In this document: positions 11,759 through 46,375 of the stretch, in pieces
Numbering within the stretch: the first letter of the stretch is position 1
Layout of the letters: each line of letters starts with the position of its first letter
Source: a virus
Virus record (IMG/VR): IMGVR_UViG_3300022842_000007
Span: 1-64,000 of that record
Length of the DNA: 64,000 nt
Reading direction: 5' to 3' (one strand)
The notes under the pieces: generated by a model
Database searches by the model: none
Seen by the model: the letters and a program-made list of their open reading frames with translations, nothing else
Told to the model about the DNA's origin: nothing
Position numbers and translations under genes: made by a program

Positions 11759-11833
11759 TATGTATTTAGCTAAAACAGTTTACCCAGAAAGATTGTTATT
11801 GTATAGGATCAATGTATAATGCTAAATAGATTC

Positions 11834-20019: not shown

Positions 20020-20690
20020 AAGTCAAACTAGTCAGTTATAGTCAAGCACCAGCATTAACAGGTGCAGACCCTAGCCCATTAGATTTAGTTGCCTATTGTG
20101 CAAGAGTAAGTAACCCAGAAAACCAAGATAATACGGAAACAAACGAAAAGCTAGTAAAGTATCTAATGAAGCATAAGCACTGGAGCCCACTTGAAATGGT
20201 AAGTGTTTGTATGTCAATTGAAACAACTAGAGATATCGCTAGACAAATTCTTCGTCATAGATCATTCTCGTTTCAAGAATTCTCTCAGCGTTATGCAGAC
20301 CCAACAAAAAGCTTGTCGTTTGAAATTAGAGAAGCACGATTCCAAGACCCCAAGAACAGACAGAACAGTATTCCATTAGATCCTGAAATGGATGGTCATG
20401 CAGTACTACAAGGCGAATGGAAGAACAAACAGCAACAAGTTATAGATGCCTCACTAGAAGCATATGTCTGGGCACTAAGTAAGGGTATCGCAAAAGAACA
20501 AGCAAGAGTAGTATTACCAGAAGGCAATACACAGAGTAGAATGTACATGAATGGTACTCTGCGTAGTTGGTTACATTATATGGAACTCCGCGGCGAAAAC
20601 GGCACTCAACAAGAACACAGAGATATCGCACATGCATGTGCAACCGTTATCGCAGACATATTTCCTTTATCTGATCTCCAAACTATTTGA
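20016..20690 (+). CDS. thyX: FAD-dependent thymidylate synthase
   Basis: RHRSFSFQEFSQRY signature, HWSPLE, EQAR. Confidence 0.95.
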   Translation: MKVKLVSYSQAPALTGADPSPLDLVAYCARVSNPENQDNTETNEKLVKYLMKHKHWSPLEMVSVCMSIETTRDIARQILRHRSFSFQEFSQRYADPTKSLSFEIREARFQDPKNRQNSIPLDPEMDGHAVLQGEWKNKQQQVIDASLEAYVWALSKGIAKEQARVVLPEGNTQSRMYMNGTLRSWLHYMELRGENGTQQEHRDIAHACATVIADIFPLSDLQTI

Positions 20691-21052
20691 CATCGAGGGT
20701 GTTAATGTATAGAATTGATGCTATGAAAGATTTGGTGAGGGTAAAAGCAGAATCGGAAGCACAGAAAACATTAGTGTATGAAATTTTTATAGACGATGAC
20801 ATGTTAATAGACGATCCTGATTCAATCCTAGCTGACCCTATTGGCACCTGGCAACAAAGTGAATCAGGAAAATATATTATGGAACATAGTAACCCAAGTC
20901 CTAAATGGGTTAAAGGCAATTCGATGATCAACTGCGAAGAACGATCGTTCTTCGCCGAAGAACGAATATATTCGATTTTCGGCGCAACATATAAAATAAT
21001 AGCATATCTCACCCCTGAAGAAGTTACTTATTGGACTCTAAAATTCTCATGA
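20687..21052 (+). CDS. Hypothetical protein
   Basis: Coupled on both sides; C-terminus YLTPEEVTYWTLKFS. Confidence 0.65.
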   Translation: MTSRVLMYRIDAMKDLVRVKAESEAQKTLVYEIFIDDDMLIDDPDSILADPIGTWQQSESGKYIMEHSNPSPKWVKGNSMINCEERSFFAEERIYSIFGATYKIIAYLTPEEVTYWTLKFS

Positions 21053-32211: not shown

Positions 32212-33243
32212 ATGGCAAGTCTAGCTGACATCCGTGCCCGTCTGGCGGAACAAGAAACAAACACTAATACCCCTAAATCTGACGGGGCGATATATCCACA
32301 TTGGAATATAGACGTAGGTGCATTAGCAACTGTGCGCTTCCTACCCGATGGCGATCCAGAGAACGCATTCTTTTGGATCGAACGTCAAATCATCAAACTA
32401 CCATTTAATGGTATAAAAGGTGATACAAACTCAAAACACACCACTGTGCAAGTTCCTTGCGTAGAAATGTTTGGAGACAACTGTCCTATACTCGCAGAAG
32501 TTCGTCCTTGGTACAAAGACGAAACATTAAAAGCTATGGCAGGGAAATATTGGAAGAAACGTACTTACATCTTCCAAGGGTTTGTACGTCAAAATCCGAT
32601 CGGAGAGGACGAGACTCCTGCGAACCCAATTCGTAGATTCATTGTTGCACCACAAATCTTTGCTGGTATCAAAGCATCATTAATGGATACTGAGATTGAA
32701 GAAATGCCAACTGATTCACTGCGTGGTCTTGATTTTAATATCAGAAAGACGCAGAAAGGTGAGTATGCTGATTATGCAACTTCGTCTTGGTCTCGTAAAG
32801 AGACTGCATTGACTGAAGCAGAACAAGCGGCTGTCGATGCGCATGGTCTATGGGATCTAAAAGAATTCTTACCCAAGAAGCCAAGTGAGTCAGAGTTACG
32901 TGTTATCAAAGAAATGTTTGAAGCATCAGTTGATGGTCTTCCATATGATCTTGAGAAGTGGGGAGCATACTATCGTCCATATGGTATGCAACTACCAGAT
33001 CAGGCCTCAAAATCTGATTCTGCGGCACCAGCAGATCCTGCAACACCTGCAACACCTGCAACACCAGCAGATCCTGCACCACTACCAGAGGCGGCTATAC
33101 CACAAGCCGCATCACAGGCACCAGCTGAACCTGAGGCAAATATTCAAACCCCAAGTGCTGAACCTGTTAAAGATCCAGGTACTTCAAGTGATAAAGCACA
33201 AGACATTCTAGCAATGATTCGTGCAAGACAACGTACTGATTAA
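32212..33243 (+). CDS. Single-stranded DNA-binding protein (T4 gp32-like)
   Basis: VRFLPD, CVEMFGDNCPI, FNIRKTQKGEYADY, Pro/Ala-rich tail; precedes UvsX. Confidence 0.85.
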   Translation: MASLADIRARLAEQETNTNTPKSDGAIYPHWNIDVGALATVRFLPDGDPENAFFWIERQIIKLPFNGIKGDTNSKHTTVQVPCVEMFGDNCPILAEVRPWYKDETLKAMAGKYWKKRTYIFQGFVRQNPIGEDETPANPIRRFIVAPQIFAGIKASLMDTEIEEMPTDSLRGLDFNIRKTQKGEYADYATSSWSRKETALTEAEQAAVDAHGLWDLKEFLPKKPSESELRVIKEMFEASVDGLPYDLEKWGAYYRPYGMQLPDQASKSDSAAPADPATPATPATPADPAPLPEAAIPQAASQAPAEPEANIQTPSAEPVKDPGTSSDKAQDILAMIRARQRTD

Positions 33244-33253
33244 TATGGTTATC

Positions 33254-33278
33254 GGGGGAAGGCAACTTCCCCCATTTT
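33254..33278 (+). terminator. Intrinsic terminator
   Basis: GGGGGAAG-GCAA-CTTCCCCC-ATTTT. Confidence 0.75.
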
Positions 33279-33292
33279 GCAGGAGAAAAACA

Positions 33293-33517
33293 ATGACCTT
33301 ACCAGAAGAAAGATTCAGGGCTCTCAAACAAGGCAAAAAATTATTAGAAGAATTATGCGACCCAGGCAAGACTCCAAGAGTTCCAAGTCTCGTTAGAGAT
33401 AGGGCCAAAGCCGCACTTAGACATTTTCCTACTGATTTTGATTTAGATGATATTTTACAAAGTTGCCCAGAGTTACTAGATAAACCAACAATTCCAAAAA
33501 AACAATCTAACCGATAG
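33293..33517 (+). CDS. Small conserved hypothetical protein
   Basis: AGGAG SD; MTLPEERFRAL...TPRVPSLVRDRA...LRHFP. Confidence 0.75.
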   Translation: MTLPEERFRALKQGKKLLEELCDPGKTPRVPSLVRDRAKAALRHFPTDFDLDDILQSCPELLDKPTIPKKQSNR

Positions 33518-33526
33518 GAGAATATT

Positions 33527-34609
33527 TTGGCTAAACCATTTGATGTGTCGAAATTTAGGAAAGACATAACAAAGTCCATTGAAGGACTTTCAGTAGGATT
33601 TCATGATCCAACAGACTGGATCAGTACTGGCTCATATGCACTTAATTATTTAATCAGTGGAGACTTTCATAAAGGAGTCCCCTTAGGAAAAGTAACAGTC
33701 TTTGCAGGCGAATCAGGCGCAGGTAAATCATACTTTGCCGCCGGCAACATAGTGAAGTCAGCACAAGATCAAGGTATCTTTGTAGTCTTAATTGACACAG
33801 AGAATGCACTTGATGAGGCTTGGTTACAGGCTTTGCAAGTTGACACTAGCCCAGAAAAGTTAATTAAACTTAGTATGAGTATGATCGACGATGTAGCAAA
33901 AACTATATCAACCTTTATGATAGATTACAAAGCGATGGCAGAAGAGGAACGTCCCAAAGTTCTGTTTGTAATTGATTCACTGGGTATGATGCTAACACCG
34001 ACTGATGTTGCACAGTTTGAAAAAGGTGACATGAAAGGAGATATGGGTCGAAAACCCAAAGCACTTACATCTTTAGTAAGAAACACAGTTAATATGTTCG
34101 GCAGTTACAATGTTGGACTCGTCGCAACCAATCACACATACGCATCACAAGATATGTTTGACCCAGATGACAAGATATCAGGTGGTCAAGGATTTATCTA
34201 CGCATCAAGTATCGTTGTTGCTATGAAAAAGATGAAACTGAAAGAAGATGATGATGGTAACAAGATTTCTGATGTCAGAGGTATTCGTGCAGGATGTAAA
34301 GTAATGAAGACTCGTTATGCAAAACCTTTTGAAGGTGTGCAAGTGAAGATTCCTTACGAGACGGGCATGAACCCACATTCTGGACTTGTAGACTTGTTTG
34401 AAAAAGGAGGCGTGTTAACTAAGCAAGGGAATCGTTTAAAGTACATCACTCAAGATGGCACTGAAATTCTTCAATTTAGAAAGCCTTGGGAAGCTAATGT
34501 AGACGGTTGTTTAGATAAAGTGATGGAAGAATATGCTGAAGTCAAAGAAGCACTAGACAAACAAACTAACGAACAAGCTCAGGAAACTGAAGAAGGGGTA
34601 TTACAGTGA
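33527..34609 (+). CDS. uvsX: RecA-like recombinase
   Basis: GESGAGKS, IDTENA, VIDSLG, NHTY, SGG. Confidence 0.93.
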   Translation: MAKPFDVSKFRKDITKSIEGLSVGFHDPTDWISTGSYALNYLISGDFHKGVPLGKVTVFAGESGAGKSYFAAGNIVKSAQDQGIFVVLIDTENALDEAWLQALQVDTSPEKLIKLSMSMIDDVAKTISTFMIDYKAMAEEERPKVLFVIDSLGMMLTPTDVAQFEKGDMKGDMGRKPKALTSLVRNTVNMFGSYNVGLVATNHTYASQDMFDPDDKISGGQGFIYASSIVVAMKKMKLKEDDDGNKISDVRGIRAGCKVMKTRYAKPFEGVQVKIPYETGMNPHSGLVDLFEKGGVLTKQGNRLKYITQDGTEILQFRKPWEANVDGCLDKVMEEYAEVKEALDKQTNEQAQETEEGVLQ

Positions 34610-36707: not shown

Positions 36708-36755
36708 ATTACCAAACAGTTTGGTTTAATAGTTTAAAGGATATATAATATACAC

Positions 36756-37787
36756 ATGAGAGACGAATTTACATGCAAAGAACATATCCTTTGGTTTATG
36801 ATGACCAATGCCATTAGCTTGTCTCATTACGATCATAAATTTATTTCCAATATGCAAGTGTTCACGCACGAAAAGAAACAAATTACAAGCAACCAATCAG
36901 CGTTATTTAATAAGTTACTGGGTAAATACACAAAGCAATTAATTAAATGTAAAAAGGATCCAGTAGAACTTGTAAAACTTCCATGGAAATGCGAAGTAAT
37001 TTCAAGTCTGCCTCAATATACTAATGCTAATGTTGCCTACGATTCTGAGAATAACCTATTAACAGTTAGGGCGCCATTCAAAAGGCAGTTCCTTCAATAT
37101 CAGCAGGGAAAGAAGGGAAATCCATGGCTATGGAATCCAACGAAAAAACGATATGAGGCTGTACCCGATACAAGAGCATTACGGGTTGCATATGATCATT
37201 TGCCCAAGTTTTTCAATACTGTGTATCACGATGGCCTCAATGATCTAATAGCCGAGATGGAAAAAGAAAAACAGCAATTCAATCGGCCAACACTGACCAT
37301 TATTAATGGAGAATATGTTGTTGCAGTTTCCAATAAAATATTAGATGAGAAACTCGAAGGAATAGAACTTAATGCTACACCACAATGCCTGTATCAAATG
37401 TCATTACTGGGCATCAGCGTAGACAGCATCATCTTACAAAACGATCCTAAGTTGCTGTTTGCTTCTAAATACGCTAATGAATGTGATGTAGATGATTTAG
37501 ATAAGATTCTGTCATGGATAGCTGAGTTGGGTTGTCGTTACCTGAGCCACCAATACAGCATGGGTGGAGAAATCGGCGGAGAAGTAAGACGGGCACTTGA
37601 AAAGGCAGGCATAGCGTTAATACCACCTGGGCCTAAGTTCGACAAGATAGCGAAGAAAAAATGTAACAACACCTTGCCAATGTTGTGTCAATTTACTTCT
37701 ACTATTAACTCGGACCAACATCATGGAGCCGGTGCTGTTGGTAAAATAATTGTAATAAAAAATGGAAGAGCGATAAAAATATTATGA
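36756..37787 (+). CDS. Hypothetical protein
   Basis: 343-aa ORF coupled to the helicase. Confidence 0.7.
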   Translation: MRDEFTCKEHILWFMMTNAISLSHYDHKFISNMQVFTHEKKQITSNQSALFNKLLGKYTKQLIKCKKDPVELVKLPWKCEVISSLPQYTNANVAYDSENNLLTVRAPFKRQFLQYQQGKKGNPWLWNPTKKRYEAVPDTRALRVAYDHLPKFFNTVYHDGLNDLIAEMEKEKQQFNRPTLTIINGEYVVAVSNKILDEKLEGIELNATPQCLYQMSLLGISVDSIILQNDPKLLFASKYANECDVDDLDKILSWIAELGCRYLSHQYSMGGEIGGEVRRALEKAGIALIPPGPKFDKIAKKKCNNTLPMLCQFTSTINSDQHHGAGAVGKIIVIKNGRAIKIL

Positions 37788-39247
37788 GCAAAGGAACTGC
37801 TATACTTAAAATTAAAGACGAGGTCAATCTCAAGATTGAAGGGCTTGACCTCGATGCTCGCAGAACATTGATGCAGAAATTCGAGTACGAAGTCCCTGGC
37901 GCACGTTATATGCCTGCTGTAAAACTAGGCAGATGGAATGGTAAAGTAAGTTACTGTTCATTAGCAGGATCAACGTTTATTAATTTACTCCCTGAGATTA
38001 TACCAATCTTAGAAGACCTTAATTATAATATTGAGTTAGCAGACCTAAGAGAATATAAGACTTCGTTCAACTTCTCTGAGATCACATCTGAATCATATGC
38101 AGAGTGTAAGTGGCCTAAGGGTCACGTACATGAAGGAGAGTCTATTAAGCTAAGAGACTATCAAGTAGAAATTATTAATCAGTTCTTGGCACACCCTCAA
38201 TCGATTCAAGAAATAGCAACTGGCGCAGGTAAGACTATCATGTCAGCCGCCTTGAGTCATAGTGTAGAATCATATGGTCGTAGCATTGTCATTGTTCCCA
38301 ATAAGAGCTTGGTAACACAGACAGAAGAGGATTACATTAACCTGGGATTGGAGGTTGGTGTTTATTTTGGTGACAGAAAAGAATACTTTAAACAACATAC
38401 AATCTGCACATGGCAGTCGCTGAACAATCTATTAAAGAATACTAAAAAAGGCGAAGCACTATGCACGATAGACGAATTTATAGAAGGGGTAGTCTGTGTG
38501 ATAGTAGATGAAGTGCATATGGCAAAAGCAGATGCATTAAAGACATTATTAACTGGTGTTATGGCTCATGTTCCCATACGTTGGGGACTGACAGGAACCG
38601 TCCCTAAAGCACATTACGAACGATTAGCACTACAAGTTAGTCTTGGCGAAGTTATTAACAAATTGTCTGCCAGTGAGTTGCAGGACCAGGGAGTGTTAGC
38701 AAAATGTCATGTGAACATAATGCAACTGCAAGACAACGCGGACTTTGGTGATTATCAAGGTGAGTTAAAATATTTACTCGGCGATAAAAAACGATTAGAC
38801 AAATTGGCTAGTCTTATAGATGCAATATCTCTGTCAGGAAACACTCTGATACTAGTAGATCGTATCAATGCAGGCCATGAATTAGTCGAGCGTTTAGACG
38901 ATGCAGTATTTGTATCAGGAGGAATGAAAGTTGTTGACAGAAAAGAAGAATATGACGATGTGGCCACGGCTACTAATAAAATTATTGTTGCTACTTACGG
39001 CGTGGCTAGTACTGGTATTAATATTCCTAGGATTTTTAATCTTGTACTCCTTGAACCAGGTAAGAGTTTTGTTCGTGTCATACAGTCTATCGGTCGTGGC
39101 ATTCGTAAAGCAGAAGACAAAGATTTTGTTCAAATCTGGGACTTGACAAGTTCATGTAAATTTGCAAAAAGGCATTTGACACAGCGCAAGGCTTTCTACA
39201 AAGAAGCAAACTATCCATTTGTTGTTGAGAAAATACAATACAAATGA
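37784..39247 (+). CDS. uvsW: SF2 DNA helicase (UvsW-like)
   Basis: LRDYQ, ATGAGKT, DEVH, GLTGT, STGINI, QSIGRGIR. Confidence 0.92.
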   Translation: MSKGTAILKIKDEVNLKIEGLDLDARRTLMQKFEYEVPGARYMPAVKLGRWNGKVSYCSLAGSTFINLLPEIIPILEDLNYNIELADLREYKTSFNFSEITSESYAECKWPKGHVHEGESIKLRDYQVEIINQFLAHPQSIQEIATGAGKTIMSAALSHSVESYGRSIVIVPNKSLVTQTEEDYINLGLEVGVYFGDRKEYFKQHTICTWQSLNNLLKNTKKGEALCTIDEFIEGVVCVIVDEVHMAKADALKTLLTGVMAHVPIRWGLTGTVPKAHYERLALQVSLGEVINKLSASELQDQGVLAKCHVNIMQLQDNADFGDYQGELKYLLGDKKRLDKLASLIDAISLSGNTLILVDRINAGHELVERLDDAVFVSGGMKVVDRKEEYDDVATATNKIIVATYGVASTGINIPRIFNLVLLEPGKSFVRVIQSIGRGIRKAEDKDFVQIWDLTSSCKFAKRHLTQRKAFYKEANYPFVVEKIQYK

Positions 39248-39293
39248 TACCATTAAACTTGACTATCCTACTAGGAGCAGTTACAATAACATC

Positions 39294-39797
39294 ATGAGAA
39301 TATTAACACTAGAAGAAAACCTGTACTATAATTTAGAAACACTTCCGGAAGAGATTGATGATATGCGATTTGCAATATTAGACAACTCTAATCCGTCGTA
39401 TGTGGATTACTATTACATACCATTAATCTTTATTGAATCTTTCAATGCACCAGCAGTCGTATTGCAGATAGGTAACAGACAGATTAAGATGCCAGTTGAT
39501 TGGCAAGTGTTAATAGGTGATGAAGAAGGAGGAGATTTAGAAACGCTCCCACTCTCAAGTCTAAACGATAGAGGTTTCTCTGTATTTGCGTTCAATCCTT
39601 TAAGTTCATTCTCACCTAGTTTCTTACCAATCGAAATAGTTGACATCTATTCTGATGTGACATGGTATGCTCCTAGACTACGCAATGGTCAGTTCCTGTG
39701 CGTGCCTATTGATGATAGTCCTAAGCCAAGATGTGTTTATTTCATTAAGGAGATAAGTCGTAATTGTGAGATCGTAGACTATGCACAGGTATTCTGA
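39294..39797 (+). CDS. Conserved hypothetical protein
   Basis: MRILTLE... start; lies in the replication block. Confidence 0.7.
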   Translation: MRILTLEENLYYNLETLPEEIDDMRFAILDNSNPSYVDYYYIPLIFIESFNAPAVVLQIGNRQIKMPVDWQVLIGDEEGGDLETLPLSSLNDRGFSVFAFNPLSSFSPSFLPIEIVDIYSDVTWYAPRLRNGQFLCVPIDDSPKPRCVYFIKEISRNCEIVDYAQVF

Positions 39798-39799
39798 AA

Positions 39800-40387
39800 A
39801 TGGCTAAGGCGAAGGTTCCGATTGAAGAGAAGTTTGAGAAACAAGAGTTTGACTTATTTGAGGCAATTACTGCTATCGATAACAAAGATTATGGTTATTA
39901 CGATAGACTAACTCCAGAACAGCAAAGGAAGTTTGTTCCTTATATGATGTTACATTGGATCAGTGCGGTAAACGGTTCGCGAAAAATGGCACAGTATTAT
40001 TTACAGAGTGTAGACTATCATGCTAACAAGTACGTGTTTAATGAAAATGTGATCAAGCATCCTAAACTACAGTGGTTGATGTTGTGTTCAGCCAGTCCCG
40101 GTATTGGTAAACAATATCATGCATGGATACCGCAAATTAAAGCAGGTGTATCTAAGTTGAGAGACAAAGCAATACCAAAAGATATTAAAACGTATTTTAA
40201 AAAGATATATCCTGCACTAACAGTGGGAGATTTGGCAGAAATGTCAGAAGCATATTGCGATCAACATAAACGCAAAATGTATTTGGCAAGCAAATTCCCT
40301 GAATTAAAATTTGATGAGGTAGAATTACTGAGTGACATCGTTACCGAAAATGACATCGAAGAATACGAAAAAGAACTCGGCAACTAA
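39800..40387 (+). CDS. Hypothetical protein, possibly a replication accessory (clamp-loader small subunit-like)
   Basis: Helical; FVPYMMLHW, HPKLQWL; function inferred weakly from context. Confidence 0.5.
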   Translation: MAKAKVPIEEKFEKQEFDLFEAITAIDNKDYGYYDRLTPEQQRKFVPYMMLHWISAVNGSRKMAQYYLQSVDYHANKYVFNENVIKHPKLQWLMLCSASPGIGKQYHAWIPQIKAGVSKLRDKAIPKDIKTYFKKIYPALTVGDLAEMSEAYCDQHKRKMYLASKFPELKFDEVELLSDIVTENDIEEYEKELGN

Positions 40388-41057
40388 ATTCGGTTGTGAC
40401 TTCTGCGGTCGTAAATTTCTTAGAGAGAGTACGATTGAAGTACACCTATGTGAAAGTAAACGTAGATGGAGTGACAAAGGCCTTAAAGGCAATCGTATTG
40501 GGTTCGCCGCTTGGTTAAACTTTTATGCAAAGAATACGCCAACCAAAAAGCAAAAAACATATTTGGATTTTGTTAAAAGTTCCTATTATATTGCATTCGT
40601 TAAGTTTGGTCATTATTGTGTTAACATAAGATGCATCAATATCAATCAATATGCAGATTGGTTACTGAAGAGTCAAATCAAGATAGACAAGTGGACGAGT
40701 GATACAAATTACACTAGATTTATTGTGGAGTATCTTAGAGCAGAAGATCCATTAGATGCAATTGCTCGTAGTATAGAATCTGCGATTAACATTGCACAGG
40801 ACGCAAAGATAGAGAACCACGATACTTTTAGATATGGTCCTCCGAATAAAATCTGTTACGAAATAACATCAGGTAGAATCTCTCCTTGGATTTTGTATCA
40901 AAGTAAATCTGGAGTAGAGTTTTTAGGGAAATTAGATTCAGGTCAACAAAACATGATATTAGAATACATCGATCCAGAACTATGGGCCATTAAGTTCTTA
41001 AGAAACACTGACATCATTAGTGAAGTAAAAGATTTACTCAATCAAGCAGGTTATTAA
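40350..41057 (+). CDS. Hypothetical protein with N-terminal Zn finger
   Basis: FGCDFCGRKFLRESTIEVHLC. Confidence 0.7.
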   Translation: MTSKNTKKNSATKFGCDFCGRKFLRESTIEVHLCESKRRWSDKGLKGNRIGFAAWLNFYAKNTPTKKQKTYLDFVKSSYYIAFVKFGHYCVNIRCININQYADWLLKSQIKIDKWTSDTNYTRFIVEYLRAEDPLDAIARSIESAINIAQDAKIENHDTFRYGPPNKICYEITSGRISPWILYQSKSGVEFLGKLDSGQQNMILEYIDPELWAIKFLRNTDIISEVKDLLNQAGY

Positions 41058-41459
41058 ATGGCCAGTATAGTATCTAAAAAACTTGATAATAGATTCACTG
41101 GCTATAAACATTTTAAATATCGTGCTAATTTGACCTCGTCCCAGCCAGTGCCAGAGATGTTTAGTTCAACACAAGGCGGCTATGCTGATTTAATCAATAT
41201 CATAGACCACGTTAAATTGCGAGATTGGTGCTGGGATACTTGGGGACCAAGCTGTGACTTAAAAGACTATATTAGAATTGCTGAACTAAGAGTATTTCTT
41301 GCTGTCAATGAGCGCACCAGACAGTCTGAAGATTATGAACTTAATGAACATTGGTGCTTTTCTAATGAATCAATAGTAAACACCAGAATAGGAAGAGAAC
41401 GTCGAATTTATTTAGCAGGTGATGCAGAACTTGCATGGCTAGGCCTAAAATGGCAATAA
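41058..41459 (+). CDS. Hypothetical protein
   Basis: DWCWDTWGPS...IYLAGDAELAWLGLKW. Confidence 0.7.
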   Translation: MASIVSKKLDNRFTGYKHFKYRANLTSSQPVPEMFSSTQGGYADLINIIDHVKLRDWCWDTWGPSCDLKDYIRIAELRVFLAVNERTRQSEDYELNEHWCFSNESIVNTRIGRERRIYLAGDAELAWLGLKWQ

Positions 41460-42157
41460 ACGAATTACACTATGACGGTAAAGGTTATGTCATTGAATAT
41501 AAGGTTGTGGCAGATGAATTACTGGATGCAATCAGTGACAAACTAGATACCTGTTATCCAGTCAGAGCATCTACACATAGAAAAAAATATGCAGAGGCAG
41601 AAGACACACAGAAACTGCAAGGCGTTGCTGTTTGGTGGTCACAACTGACTGATGAATGGGATGAAGTTCAGACAATTAACAATTTGGTTTATCCAATAAT
41701 TCAACAACATATGCCTAAGGCAAAGTTCTATGCGAGTGACATTGTAACTATTAATGGACCTTCTCGTTGGATTGGTCCGCATGTTGACACGCCTCATAGA
41801 TTCACAGAATACAATGACGTAGCGCCAGACGAACTCTTGGGCATACAAGTCATTATACCATTAGAGACACTAGACGAGACTACAGGGGCTACCGGCCTGA
41901 TCCCTTTCAGCCATAGAGAAGATTGGGATATACAAGATTGTTACGATGGTGTACATGATGATATGTTCAAAGACGAAGCAGTACAGCACGAGTTACCAAA
42001 AGGGTCGGTGTTGTTCTATAACACTCGATTGATGCATTCTACAATGCCATTAAATTTACCCAAAAAGCGATCTATTCTCTTGCTTAACTATTTACGGGAT
42101 GATATAATACAATCTGTAACAAAAATTGACAATATATGGAGTAGTAATGGCAAATGA
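41450..42157 (+). CDS. PhyH-family 2OG-Fe(II) dioxygenase
   Basis: PHVD, GATGLIPFSH, KGSVLFYNTRLMH, R-S. Confidence 0.85.
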   Translation: MAINELHYDGKGYVIEYKVVADELLDAISDKLDTCYPVRASTHRKKYAEAEDTQKLQGVAVWWSQLTDEWDEVQTINNLVYPIIQQHMPKAKFYASDIVTINGPSRWIGPHVDTPHRFTEYNDVAPDELLGIQVIIPLETLDETTGATGLIPFSHREDWDIQDCYDGVHDDMFKDEAVQHELPKGSVLFYNTRLMHSTMPLNLPKKRSILLLNYLRDDIIQSVTKIDNIWSSNGK

Positions 42158-42686
42158 TATAATGATAGATATGGAAACATTAAGCACGAGAGCCGACTGT
42201 GTGATATTAACTATTGGTGCTGTGCGATTTGATCCCAGGGGCATTGGTGTAGTAGAGCGCATTGAAATCAGACCCACAATAGAAGAACAAACTGCCGATT
42301 TTGACAGACATATTGATGAAGAGACTCTGGATTGGTGGGGAAGACAATCAGATGATGCAATCAATGAATCAATGGGTGATACAGGTCGAGTACCATTTAA
42401 AGTCGCAATGGAACAGTTGCACAAATTTTGTTGGAATCAAGGAAAGATATGGTCCAATGGTTCTGTTTTTGATGTAATCATAGCTGAACATGCATTCAAT
42501 CAATTAGATATAACTCATCCATGGCGATTCTGGAACATCAGAGACTGTCGAACAATATATAATCTTTGTAAAGTATCTTTAAAAGATGGTTCTCATGTAA
42601 CCTCTCACAAAGCAGTAGAGGATGCTGAACACCAAGCAATAGTAGTGCAACGAGCATATTTAAAATTAACGGAAGCAGGATTGTAA
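42147..42686 (+). CDS. DEDD 3'-5' exonuclease
   Basis: MIDMETL, WSNGSVFD, RDCRT, HKAVEDA. Confidence 0.88.
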   Translation: MANDIMIDMETLSTRADCVILTIGAVRFDPRGIGVVERIEIRPTIEEQTADFDRHIDEETLDWWGRQSDDAINESMGDTGRVPFKVAMEQLHKFCWNQGKIWSNGSVFDVIIAEHAFNQLDITHPWRFWNIRDCRTIYNLCKVSLKDGSHVTSHKAVEDAEHQAIVVQRAYLKLTEAGL

Positions 42687-43270
42687 TGCATCAATCGGAT
42701 ATTGACATAGATTTTGGTGATAGGACGAAGTTGTTAAAAGTAATACAACATATTCCTGCATCCATGCGTAATGTCAGTCCGATTAAAAAGCATCCTACTG
42801 GTGTATACATTACAGAAGTTCCGTATGATCCTGTTAATGATATGTGTGCATTGGATTACAAAGAAGCCGATGCTCGTAAATATTTTAAATTAGATTTGTT
42901 GAATGTAAATGTGTATCAACAAGTTAAAGATGAACATCATTTGATTAGTCTTATGGCAGAGCCAAATTGGGAACGCCTTAAGGAAAAAGACTTCGTAGAG
43001 CAATTAATACACTTAAATAAACAATATGATATTTTACAAAAAATGCCACAAGAAATAAATAGTATTCCAAGATTAGCAATGTTCCTGGCTATCATTAGGC
43101 CTGCTAAAAGAACGCTCATAGGAAGAACGTGGGAACACATTAGTAAAACAGTATGGATAGATAACAATCGTGGGTACACATTTAAGAAATCGCATGCTGT
43201 AGCATACGCACAATTAGTTGTGGTACATATGAATTTAATCGAAGAAGGAAAAACCCGTGACGGAATATAG
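42686..43270 (+). CDS. Miniature DNA polymerase III alpha (DnaE)-like protein
   Basis: DIDIDF, KHPTGVY, FKLDLL, AIIRP, FKKSHAVAYA in DnaE order within 194 aa. Confidence 0.78.
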   Translation: MHQSDIDIDFGDRTKLLKVIQHIPASMRNVSPIKKHPTGVYITEVPYDPVNDMCALDYKEADARKYFKLDLLNVNVYQQVKDEHHLISLMAEPNWERLKEKDFVEQLIHLNKQYDILQKMPQEINSIPRLAMFLAIIRPAKRTLIGRTWEHISKTVWIDNNRGYTFKKSHAVAYAQLVVVHMNLIEEGKTRDGI

Positions 43271-43520
43271 CGATACAGTAGAAAGACAGCGGTTGCGCAT
43301 AAACTCAGAGAAGTGGGGGAAGGGTATTACAACACTTCATGCGCATTCATTAACATCTATGTGGTATGATACACGCAAGACAGATGGCTCGGTAATAGAC
43401 ACTGAATACAATAATGGTTCTATTAAACGAGTAATACAAAACACTGGTGAAATTATTTACTTTGGAAAAGCACTCACAGGAGATGCATTAATGGATGCAT
43501 ACGGAAGTCATGGGCAATAA
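43257..43520 (+). CDS. Hypothetical protein
   Basis: AAGGA SD with GTG start; overlaps both neighbours. Confidence 0.65.
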   Translation: MTEYSDTVERQRLRINSEKWGKGITTLHAHSLTSMWYDTRKTDGSVIDTEYNNGSIKRVIQNTGEIIYFGKALTGDALMDAYGSHGQ

Positions 43521-44067
43521 ACTAGAACTTACGCTAATTGATGAAAGTAATCCTTTATTAAAAGAACCCTGCACTGCCTGGGATTTTACATCAGACGGTT
43601 CACCAACTGAACTGGTGTCTGCTTTGACAAGAGTTATGTTTAGCCCTAATCATGGTGGTATTGGGTTGGCCGCACCACAGTGTGGAGTGATGAAAAATAT
43701 ATTTGTCATGGGAAGCAATGAAAATTTGATTGCTGTTATTAATCCTGTCATTGATGAATTAATTGGCGACAAAGAGATGTACTTAGAAGGTTGTTTAAGT
43801 TATCCTGATCTTTGGTTACATGTACTAAGACATCCAGAATGCATCGTATCGTATCAAACACTCGACGGCACTGCGGTTGAAAGAAAACATCTTACGGATC
43901 TACAAGCAAGAGTATTTTTACACGAATTTGATCATTTATTAGGTATAACATTTGAAGAACGAGTACAGAGTAAACTTAGTTTAGAATTAGCTAAGAAGCG
44001 TAGAGTAAAGAAGAGGCGTCAAACAGAAAAAGCTATCAAAAGAATGAAAGCGAAAGCAACTCAGTAG
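43510..44067 (+). CDS. def: Peptide deformylase
   Basis: GIGLAAPQ, EGCLS, HEFDH; basic C-terminal helix. Confidence 0.93.
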   Translation: MGNKLELTLIDESNPLLKEPCTAWDFTSDGSPTELVSALTRVMFSPNHGGIGLAAPQCGVMKNIFVMGSNENLIAVINPVIDELIGDKEMYLEGCLSYPDLWLHVLRHPECIVSYQTLDGTAVERKHLTDLQARVFLHEFDHLLGITFEERVQSKLSLELAKKRRVKKRRQTEKAIKRMKAKATQ

Positions 44068-44453
44068 GTTCGTTTTACTAACGTAATAGATTTTCTCTTA
44101 ACACGTTTCTTTTGAAAATCAGTCATACTAACAACAGGGCCGTGTAGTAAATTTAGTGCTTTGTTGTTGAATGTTCTGATAAAAGGTTTGAAGGCTGTCC
44201 ATTCATCTTTCAAGAACAGGTTGATTGGTATTTGTCTATTCGATTCCCACCACCATACATCGCCTAATTCTAAAAACAGAACTTTAAGATCAGCATCATG
44301 TATCGCTCCGTAATCATACATAGTAGTGACCAGATCATCTCGGTTCTGTATGATGCCCACGTGGTCTTGTCCAGCATACTGAAGCACCGATATGAAAGGG
44401 TGAGTTTCGGTCAGTTTCTGAAAATAATCTAGTGGGTTCTTTGCATCTGTCAT
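44061..44453 (-). CDS. Conserved hypothetical protein
   Basis: WWWESNRQIPINLFL; TAAATA on the minus strand at 44464-44469. Confidence 0.75.
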   Translation of the reverse strand: MTDAKNPLDYFQKLTETHPFISVLQYAGQDHVGIIQNRDDLVTTMYDYGAIHDADLKVLFLELGDVWWWESNRQIPINLFLKDEWTAFKPFIRTFNNKALNLLHGPVVSMTDFQKKRVKRKSITLVKRTY

Positions 44454-45347: not shown

Positions 45348-45397
45348 GTTACCCTCTTTACTTGTTTTCTCATTCTTTTTAGTATATAATTACAGAT

Positions 45398-46375
45398 ATG
45401 TTTGATATACTCACGATTATTCCTGGCAAAAAGAAAAAGACACAAAGCGGTTGGAATTCATTCAATGCTCCGTGCTGTGCTCATAATGGCCACACTCCCG
45501 ATAAACGCATGCGTGGCGGTATCAAACAAGATGGAGACAATTGGCAGTTTCATTGTTTCAATTGCAACTTCAAGTGTGGCTTCCAGTTAGGTAGATCGAT
45601 CAGCAAAACGTGTCGTAGATTTCTACTCTGGCAAGGCATGCCTGAAACAGACATTAACAAATGGTCTTTGCATTCTGTTCAGCACAAAGACTTGATTAAT
45701 TCGATATTGTCGAAAAAGAAACAGCTGGTGGTGCCGGCGTTTAAAGAAATGCCTATGCCTGCAGGCGAGTTGATTTACGCAGGGAACAAAAAGCATAAAG
45801 TTTATATAGACTACCTACATACCAGAGGGATGACTCAAAATGATTATCCTTTTTTAGTAACCCCTGATGAAGAAGGTAGAGAAGCAAATAAATTGATTAT
45901 ACCCTTTACATATCAAAACAAAGTTGTAGGTAGCACTAGTAGATACATAGATGGTAGAAAGCCCAAGTTTATAAGCGATCAACAACCAGGTTATGTATTC
46001 GGCACAGACTTGCAAAGGGACACGTGGGGAATAGTCTTGGTGTTTGAAGGCATCTTTGATGCAATCTCAATGAATGGGTTAGCAGTGACAGGTAGCGAAA
46101 TCAATGATAATCAAGCCGTGATTATTAAAAGATTGGGTAAACGTGTTATTGTTGTTCCTGATCAAGATAAAACAGGATTAGAGATATGTGATCGTGCATT
46201 AGACCTGGGTTTTGAGGTAGCACTACCAAATTGGTATGGTGCTGACAAAATGGATGCAAATGAGGCAATAATAAAATATGGTAAATTAAATACCCTACTA
46301 AGTATACTTGATGCCGCAACCAGTAGTAAAATAGTTGTGGAAATGATGAGGAATAAAATTGCTAAAAGAATTTAA
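45398..46375 (+). CDS. DNA primase (Zn finger + TOPRIM)
   Basis: PCC...HCFNC, FEGIFDA, PDQD. Confidence 0.88.
   Translation: MFDILTIIPGKKKKTQSGWNSFNAPCCAHNGHTPDKRMRGGIKQDGDNWQFHCFNCNFKCGFQLGRSISKTCRRFLLWQGMPETDINKWSLHSVQHKDLINSILSKKKQLVVPAFKEMPMPAGELIYAGNKKHKVYIDYLHTRGMTQNDYPFLVTPDEEGREANKLIIPFTYQNKVVGSTSRYIDGRKPKFISDQQPGYVFGTDLQRDTWGIVLVFEGIFDAISMNGLAVTGSEINDNQAVIIKRLGKRVIVVPDQDKTGLEICDRALDLGFEVALPNWYGADKMDANEAIIKYGKLNTLLSILDAATSSKIVVEMMRNKIAKRI

Follow-up and report, generated by a model that had tools for sequence, protein, structure and literature searches.

The first 64,000 nucleotides of the IMG/VR virus record IMGVR_UViG_3300022842_000007 (hereafter "the window") contain, at 42686..43270, a gene whose 194-residue product can very securely be identified as the C-terminal unit (C unit) of a split minimal DNA polymerase III alpha (Pol III alpha); a complementary N-terminal unit (N unit) is encoded on the same contig, 42.5 kb downstream of the C unit. 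It is likely that the two units together reconstitute one active site and constitute a two-gene minimal Pol III alpha (mini Pol III) acting as an accessory DNA polymerase beside a family-B replicase. The whole record (G000), of which the window represents bases 1-64000, has a length of 92,110 bp and a CheckV completeness of 26%. The two genes are the following:

42686..43270, + strand: C unit of the split minimal Pol III alpha (phrog_11778), with the DxD strand D5/D7, K68/D70 and reduced fingers R138-P139 and K168-S169-H170
G000 85795-86301 (= L003:1237-1743), + strand, outside the window: N unit, 168 aa (phrog_11127, E=5.7e-40; PF07733)

The C unit and its kinship with DnaE and PolC

The open reading frame (ORF) of the C unit is intact, with no internal stop, and its beginning overlaps the end of an upstream exonuclease ORF, the last A of the TAA at 42684-42686 being the first base of the C-unit ATG (TAATG); both features, reported in the original prediction, are seen in the sequence. 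The five DnaE motifs that had been recognized there are all located, in canonical order, in the 194-aa product, whose N-terminus reads MHQSDIDIDF: DIDIDF occupies positions 5-10, KHPTGVY 35-41, FKLDLL 67-72, AIIRP 135-139 and FKKSHAVAYA 166-175, and the three catalytic aspartates are kept as D5, D7 and D70. On the other hand, the description of this product as a minimal polymerase core holds only in part, insofar as the protein is a family-C piece endowed with the catalytic Asp residues but covers no more of the palm than its second half, to which reduced fingers are added.

The kinship with the bacterial replicases emerges from profiles as well as from the fold. Among the PHROGs, phrog_11778, annotated "DNA polymerase", matches residues 3-188 of the C unit with positions 6-194 of its 197 (E=1.2e-54), and phrog_405, the full-length DnaE family, gives a weak local match. 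The profile of an alignment (A1) of 80 diverse C-unit homologues, reaching down to 29% identity, retrieves from the PDB Pol III alpha chains only (E. coli, T. aquaticus and M. tuberculosis), with E-values from 1.8e-5 to 2.8e-4. In these alignments K68/D70 are paired with K553/D555 of E. coli, R138-P139 of the AIIRP motif with ALFRPG (E. coli 635-641) and the FKKSHAVAYA motif with F756-A765 (FNKSHSAAYA), where K758-H760 corresponds to KSH. D5/D7 are equated with D401/D403 because the DFDID of a natural fused homologue, described below, aligns to D401-F-D403-V-D405 of the E. coli enzyme.

The AlphaFold2 model of the C unit, generated from A1, has a pLDDT of 95.4. When this model is compared with the PDB by Foldseek, nine Pol III alpha chains rank first, and a VIA-align scan covering 48,161 chains places seven C-family polymerases at the top, with Z-scores from 9.6 to 6.0 and 187-189 of the 194 residues aligned, the next match having a Z of 3.9. 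These polymerases include PolC 3f2b (Z 9.6, 187 aa, rmsd 3.2), M. tuberculosis DnaE1 (Z 9.2), the T. aquaticus enzyme (Z 8.9, residues 459-841) and that of E. coli (Z 7.5, 188 residues aligned within 399-781). Thus, in the AlphaFold comparison with DnaE, the C-unit model matches C-family polymerases only, and the resemblance of the C unit to DnaE is not a matter of chance.

Throughout A1, D5, D7, K68, D70, R138 and P139 are invariant, the homologues having kept the three catalytic aspartates in 80 of 80 sequences, and D9, H36, G39, K141, K167 and H170 are conserved in at least 90%. Pairwise Nei-Gojobori ratios of nonsynonymous to synonymous substitution (dN/dS) lie between 0.03 and 0.11, these values coming from closer pairs among the relatives because the synonymous sites are saturated between the C gene of the window and its relatives. 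The family is large, with at least 7978 clusters at 90% identity, many of which are marine and include Tara sequences, and 388 clusters at 50% identity, nearly all of 185-215 aa, the typical length being about 190-200 aa. The C unit of the window is 33-45% identical to the members found in cultured phages, and a megablast search of 4 kb of the locus against phages returned zero matches.

Compared with DnaE, the polypeptide is severely shortened. Between D7 and D70 there are 62 residues, as opposed to 151 between D403 and D555 in E. coli, a shortfall approximating the size of the thumb, which is missing in the C unit; in E. coli the thumb reportedly spans residues 433-510 (Lamers et al. 2006) and is inserted in the palm. 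Furthermore, D70 and K168 are 98 residues apart versus 203 in E. coli, and the polypeptide stops at a position corresponding to about residue 781 of the E. coli enzyme, beyond which nothing matches the clamp-binding, OB and tau-binding parts. No PHP domain (PF02811) was found in either the N unit or the C unit, the structural match of the fused homologue beginning at E. coli 267, and the PF17657 (fingers) profile yielded nothing in the whole contig. The absence of the PHP, OB and clamp-binding parts and of the intervening domains, as had been noticed at the outset, is therefore real, and the N + C pair amounts to about 360 residues in two chains, without thumb, PHP, distal fingers, clamp-binding, OB and tau-binding parts.

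The N unit, the split point and the natural fusions

The initial suggestion that the 194-aa protein could be one subunit of a split enzyme has been substantiated by the finding of the half bearing the GS motif. In the search of the rest of the record for other DnaE pieces, PF07733 gave one match over the 92,110 bp, located beyond the window at 86059-86304 (E=3.2e-11, 38.9 bits, above cut-off), and this match identifies the 168-aa N unit. The tail of the latter (GVGRGSS...DIKEFLK) consists of the GS triphosphate-binding motif of DnaE and of the helix that comes next; in the E. coli enzyme the GS segment is followed by a short loop and then by PDFDVDF, and it is exactly there that the C unit begins. 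The split point is conserved: 10 of the 11 N units from viral contigs stop at the same ...EFL(K/R), the remaining one extending four residues more. Thus, the GRGS..GS motif and the first half of the Pol-beta-like palm are absent from the 194-aa ORF and are borne by the separate N unit, which ends where the C unit starts. As to the alignments combining the two units, A2 and A4 were discarded since the N units had been placed on the C half, and A3 was used, where a slight misalignment affects the final 9 residues of the N units.

The two units travel together. A tblastn search detected 96 phage records with the C unit and 86 with the N unit, the genera and counts being nearly the same (C/N records, among others: Escherichia 34/33, Pseudomonas 11/11, Klebsiella 11/10, Salmonella 8/8 and Erwinia 8/8). 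The distance between the two genes, 42.5 kb in the present contig, is 31 kb in 121Q, 34 kb in RaK2 and GAP32, 43.7 kb in PAC2, 119 kb in the complete 329-kb contig G004, 182 kb in Atu_ph07 and 224 kb in Phosso.

Natural fusions of the two are rare: in three metagenome proteins of 375-376 aa (P0181, P0272 and P0273), which belong to three clusters from different sources and are encoded on contigs of 2.4-5.9 kb, the N unit is joined to the C unit by a 9-residue linker. The N half of the fusion is 39% identical to the N unit of this phage and is aligned through its very last residue, and in P0181 the PF07733 match runs unbroken across the N/C junction (residues 97-207). The model of P0181 (pLDDT 80.4, with residues 80-375 mostly >85) matches DnaE/PolC with Z-scores of 22.2-14.7 over 282-298 residues (M. 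tuberculosis DnaE1, Z 22.2, 286 aa, rmsd 2.9; T. aquaticus, Z 21.6; PolC, Z 21.3; E. coli, Z 16.2, residues 267-773), the next matches, at Z<=4.8, including the Pol-beta-fold ANT(2''), CCA-adding enzymes, MenT, OAS and Pol beta. The Pol-beta-like palm expected in the predicted structure is therefore present, but it is complete only with both units, as in the model of the P0181 fusion.

In a FastTree phylogeny of 94 C-unit sequences, the fused clade lies inside a clade (support 0.99) whose nine other members are all stand-alone and which is itself nested several nodes deep among split forms under a midpoint root; with the tree so rooted, fusion looks secondary to the split. A single protein, P0271 (350 aa, from one 2-kb contig), emerged when longer homologues were sought; it consists of the C-terminal 115 residues of a C unit attached to an unrelated N-terminus without the DxD strand and is probably an assembly chimera. 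A further split of the gene in 121Q was rejected, the "(x2)" mark reflecting just the convergent gene that overlaps the C-unit 3' end.

The variable and often large separation of the two genes (31-224 kb in different phages) and the ability of the C unit to fold confidently by itself (pLDDT 95 in the model) could be taken to indicate that the 194-aa protein functions without the N unit, whether as a small nucleotidyltransferase that has been repurposed or as a DNA-binding factor with no catalytic activity. This is to be regarded as highly improbable: the C unit is devoid of the GS-motif helix and of the first palm part, which every Pol-beta-fold enzyme uses for the triphosphate, the N unit co-occurs with it, ends exactly at the junction and exists in fused forms, and the invariance of the catalytic residues speaks against a purely structural role. 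Accordingly, the stand-alone small nucleotidyltransferase contemplated in the original prediction is unlikely, because the C unit alone possesses only half of the nucleotidyltransferase fold.

A proposed function for the putative N + C enzyme

A search with PF00136 showed that Phosso, PAC2, the related genomes G001 and G003 and the complete 329-kb G004 contain frames of 825-1013 aa for a family-B polymerase. Because relatives endowed with the C unit, the complete G004 included, also encode a family-B polymerase, the mini Pol III is best seen as accessory, and the "replicase" of the earlier proposal is not supported in view of this evidence and of the lack of the thumb, PHP, clamp-binding and OB parts. 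According to the mechanism that we favor, the N unit and the C unit would associate non-covalently, rebuilding one Pol-beta-like active site in a nucleotidyltransferase of about 360 residues, and the mini Pol III so reconstituted would work as an accessory DNA polymerase beside the family-B replicase. Repair, recombination-dependent synthesis and primer extension would be its likely roles, because the place of the C unit is fixed between the UvsW and the primase-helicase genes.

The loss of the thumb and of most of the DNA-gripping parts, and the fact that the next structural neighbours are Pol-beta-fold CCA-adding enzymes, MenT and OAS, leave a slim chance that the reconstituted N + C enzyme, albeit active, is not a template-directed DNA polymerase but rather a terminal transferase, a modifier of RNA primers or RNA ends or a synthase of nucleotide signals. 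The conservation of the RP and KSH finger motifs, which in Pol III alpha contact the incoming nucleotide/template, and the fixed place of the gene among those of replication and recombination (gp32, UvsX, UvsW and primase) argue instead for templated synthesis.

A number of points weigh against the interpretation of the pair as an accessory polymerase. PF00136 (PolB) found no match in the 92-kb record of this phage, which is 26% complete, so that the term "accessory" rests on the relatives; with the C unit alone, Pfam-A gave no match at E<=0.1, PF07733 included; and the E-values of the Foldseek matches are weak (0.02-0.3), for which reason the VIA-align Z-scores are relied on. Moreover, a polymerase without thumb or clamp contact would be expected to have poor processivity unless other proteins help it. 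Finally, it is from the fusions, the co-occurrence and the modelled fold that we infer the association of the N and C units, and a literature search for experimental follow-up on the activity of the mini Pol III found none in the library that was searched.

The adjacent exonuclease

The gene that overlaps the C-unit start specifies an enzyme that had been suggested as a possible proofreader of the polymerase:

42147..42686, + strand: DEDDh 3'-5' exonuclease, Rv2179c-like (PF16473 E=7.9e-34, phrog_255), a clade-specific neighbour

Its best start is the ATG at 42147, where the alignments of the homologues begin. The enzyme belongs to PF16473 and not to DnaQ/RNase T (PF00929), and displays no similarity to the DnaQ-like ORF117 of RaK2. 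In every relative of at least 64% identity its gene is adjacent to the C unit, the spacer measuring from 2 to about 950 nt, but it is missing from this position in the relatives of 59% identity or less, in the PA5oct-like phages and in PAC2, Phosso, 121Q and RaK2. More remote marine relatives carry a member of the family elsewhere: in the complete G004 the PF16473 exonuclease is found at 104.5 kb and the C unit at 57.8 kb, i.e., 46 kb away, and in G001 the two are separated by ~109 kb. Furthermore, members of PF16473 are spread over 645 phage records of diverse kinds, the majority of which have no mini Pol III. As to the TAATG overlap, which had been read as a sign of coupling, it loses this meaning in view of the fact that all the operon junctions from 39797 to 43520 are of 2 nt or less or overlapping.

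These data bear on the possibility that the split mini Pol III and the adjacent DEDDh exonuclease constitute the main replicase of the phage, in the form of a Pol C of two or three subunits equipped with its own proofreader. In favor of this possibility are the adjacency in all relatives of at least 64% identity, the lack of a family-B polymerase in the available 92 kb and the occurrence, within the same cluster of RaK2 and 121Q and upstream of UvsW, of a DnaQ-type exonuclease (PF00929) of unrelated sequence. It is nevertheless very unlikely, given that all the tested relatives of sufficient size, the complete G004 among them, encode a family-B polymerase, that the exonuclease is not at this position at 59% identity or below and lies 46-109 kb off in G004/G001, that its family is mostly found in phages without a mini Pol III, that the overlap is an operon-wide rule and that the thumb and clamp-binding parts are missing. 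Thus, because the adjacency is clade-limited, the family widespread and the overlap not distinctive, a dedicated proofreader is not supported. The exonuclease appears to have moved beside the C unit in one marine sub-clade, where it may either work with the accessory polymerase or be independent of it, a coupling between the two being weakly supported. The DnaQ-type exonuclease lies directly upstream of UvsW in both RaK2 (ORF117, L078:1416-2237) and 121Q (gene 9), which suggests, if only faintly, that this module tends to attract exonucleases.

The conserved replication locus and its promoters

The C unit lies within a conserved block, which in the window is interspersed with clade-specific insertions:

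37784..39247, + strand: UvsW-like helicase, upstream anchor of the block
39294..39797, + strand: phrog_11279 gene, function without lead, following UvsW in all examined relatives covering the position
39800..40387, + strand: phrog_11758 gene, function without lead, conserved neighbour
40332..41057, + strand: phrog_11058 gene, with one N-terminal C2H2/C2HC-like zinc finger, conserved neighbour
41058-41459, + strand: orf133, clade-specific insertion between the zinc-finger gene and the C unit
41435-42157, + strand: PhyH-like 2OG-Fe(II) dioxygenase, clade-specific insertion between the zinc-finger gene and the C unit
43257-43520, + strand: orf87, clade-specific insertion downstream of the C unit
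43495-44067, + strand: peptide deformylase, clade-specific insertion downstream of the C unit
44061..44453, - strand: phrog_11637 gene, convergent and conserved, function without lead, flanking the C unit
45398..46375, + strand: Toprim DNA primase (gp61-like), downstream anchor of the block

In 55 viral contigs and four cultured phages the order is UvsW, phrog_11279, phrog_11758, phrog_11058, C unit, convergent phrog_11637, (orf266) and primase, followed in the annotated cultured phages by a DnaB/gp41-type helicase. The window possesses a T4-like set of genes, namely a gp32-like protein, a RecA/UvsX-like recombinase, UvsW and a Toprim primase, whose order is repeated in the relatives; the gp32-like single-stranded DNA-binding protein (PF08804, weak) and the recombinase (PF00154 E=2.9e-14) are encoded at 32212-34609, upstream of UvsW.

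The phrog_11058 gene probably starts a few codons past 40332. In the relatives of 59% identity or less this gene is the last conserved one before the C unit, which it abuts in several cases, and in 121Q and RaK2 one small gene separates the two. At the other side, the 3' end of the phrog_11637 gene overlaps that of the C-unit gene in the PA5oct-like phages, Phosso, 121Q and RaK2. The PhyH-like dioxygenase and the peptide deformylase resemble auxiliary-gene insertions within the replication module and are found in this marine clade only.

The phrog_11279, 11758, 11058 and 11637 genes hold their position around the C unit from the marine contigs to PA5oct, RaK2, 121Q and Phosso. Searches of Pfam, the PDB and the ESM Atlas with these four small conserved neighbours gave no lead except the one C2H2-like finger of phrog_11058, and their products are candidates for the role of accessory subunits. 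An extension of the two-gene accessory polymerase along these lines can be imagined, though it seems unlikely: by analogy with the way in which DnaE operates for PolC in Bacillus, a larger accessory polymerase, made of N + C and of the four proteins replacing the thumb/clamp contacts, would extend primase products before the hand-off to the family-B replicase, and the DEDDh exonuclease would have been recruited as an editing partner in the marine clade.

The operon holding the C unit probably starts at the following promoter:

39250..39287, + strand: candidate promoter of sigma-70-like type (CC-N7-TTGACT-N17-TACAAT), whose end lies 6 nt ahead of the ATG at 39294

This candidate (CCATTAAACTTGACT-N17-TACAAT) is nearly identical to that preceding the N unit at G000 85752-85788 (CCATTTTACTTGCTT-N16-TACAAT), which likewise ends 6 nt ahead of the N-unit ATG. 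A relaxed pattern (CC-N7-TTGnnn-N16-18-TAnnAT) occurs 7 times on the + strand, compared with about 1 expected, at 11784-11820, 20678-20715, 36712-36749, 39250-39287 and 45353-45390 within the window and at G000 65277-65314 and 85752-85788 beyond it. Several of these sites end 6-8 nt ahead of an ATG, which suggests very short leaders or none, and the letters of the two promoter candidates are consistent with a co-regulation of the N and C units through a common promoter type. On the 3' side of the N unit there are a charged 210-aa ORF and then a GroES/Cpn10-like gene (L003:2386-2763, PF00166 E=1.8e-5).

Relation to known systems

A split minimal Pol III alpha has been described in the group 2.2 (T4-related) jumbo phages by Iyer et al. 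(2021, Viruses 13:63, PMC7824862); in the portion of that paper drawn upon here, it is said to accompany a family-B polymerase, possibly serving the synthesis of one strand or repair, and is proposed to give a picture of the ancestral form of the replicase. Because the split enzyme already appears in that portion, the present finding is not new in kind; the natural fusions, the exact conservation of the split point and the constant block of neighbours are not seen in the same portion. The PHROG families of the C unit (phrog_11778) and of the N unit (phrog_11127) comprise RaK2, 121Q, GAP32, CBB, PA5oct, Atu_ph07 and Phosso among their examples, and in several phages GenBank labels these genes as DNA polymerase III alpha. 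The present system shares with those of group 2.2 the length, the start at the DxD strand, the distant N unit and the T4-like context (gp32, UvsX, UvsW and primase), and differs from the cultured members in belonging to an uncultivated marine lineage and in the insertions that surround its C unit, namely an exonuclease, a PhyH-like protein, a deformylase and two small ORFs.

This particular instance reveals no new principle, and the idea of a built-in proofreader loses support. The split Pol III alpha is, however, among the smallest known relatives of the bacterial replicase and is very abundant in environmental jumbo phages; what is gained as material for biochemistry is the exact partner gene, the split point, single-chain fusions of 375 aa, the invariant residues and the linked genes.

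With the bacterial DnaE/PolC enzymes (PDB 2hnh, 2hpi, 5lew and 3f2b) the mini Pol III has in common the Pol-beta-like palm, the same three Asp residues, the equivalent of K553 and the RP and KSH motifs. Unlike them, it consists of about 360 residues in two chains instead of 1100-1450 in one, it is not the sole polymerase of its type of genome and its C unit fails PF07733, a profile that both the N unit and the fused homologue match.

Another viral polymerase reduced to essentials is Pol X of African swine fever virus, described, in the part of the source considered, as a "minimal" Pol-beta-fold DNA polymerase with palm and fingers only (PMC11646218). Both are stripped-down enzymes of this fold without DNA-gripping domains, and Pol X acts in repair beside a family-B replicase; however, Pol X is a single chain of family X whose activity has been shown by experiment, whereas the mini Pol III is of family C and stems from two genes.

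In cyanobacteria, DnaE is encoded by two distant genes and the two halves are ligated by a split intein into the full-length protein. The mini Pol III resembles this system in being a C-family polymerase derived from two distant genes, but no intein sequences are present at the split, where the N unit stops with ...EFLK and the C unit starts with M-x3-DxD, and any assembly of N and C must for this reason be non-covalent.

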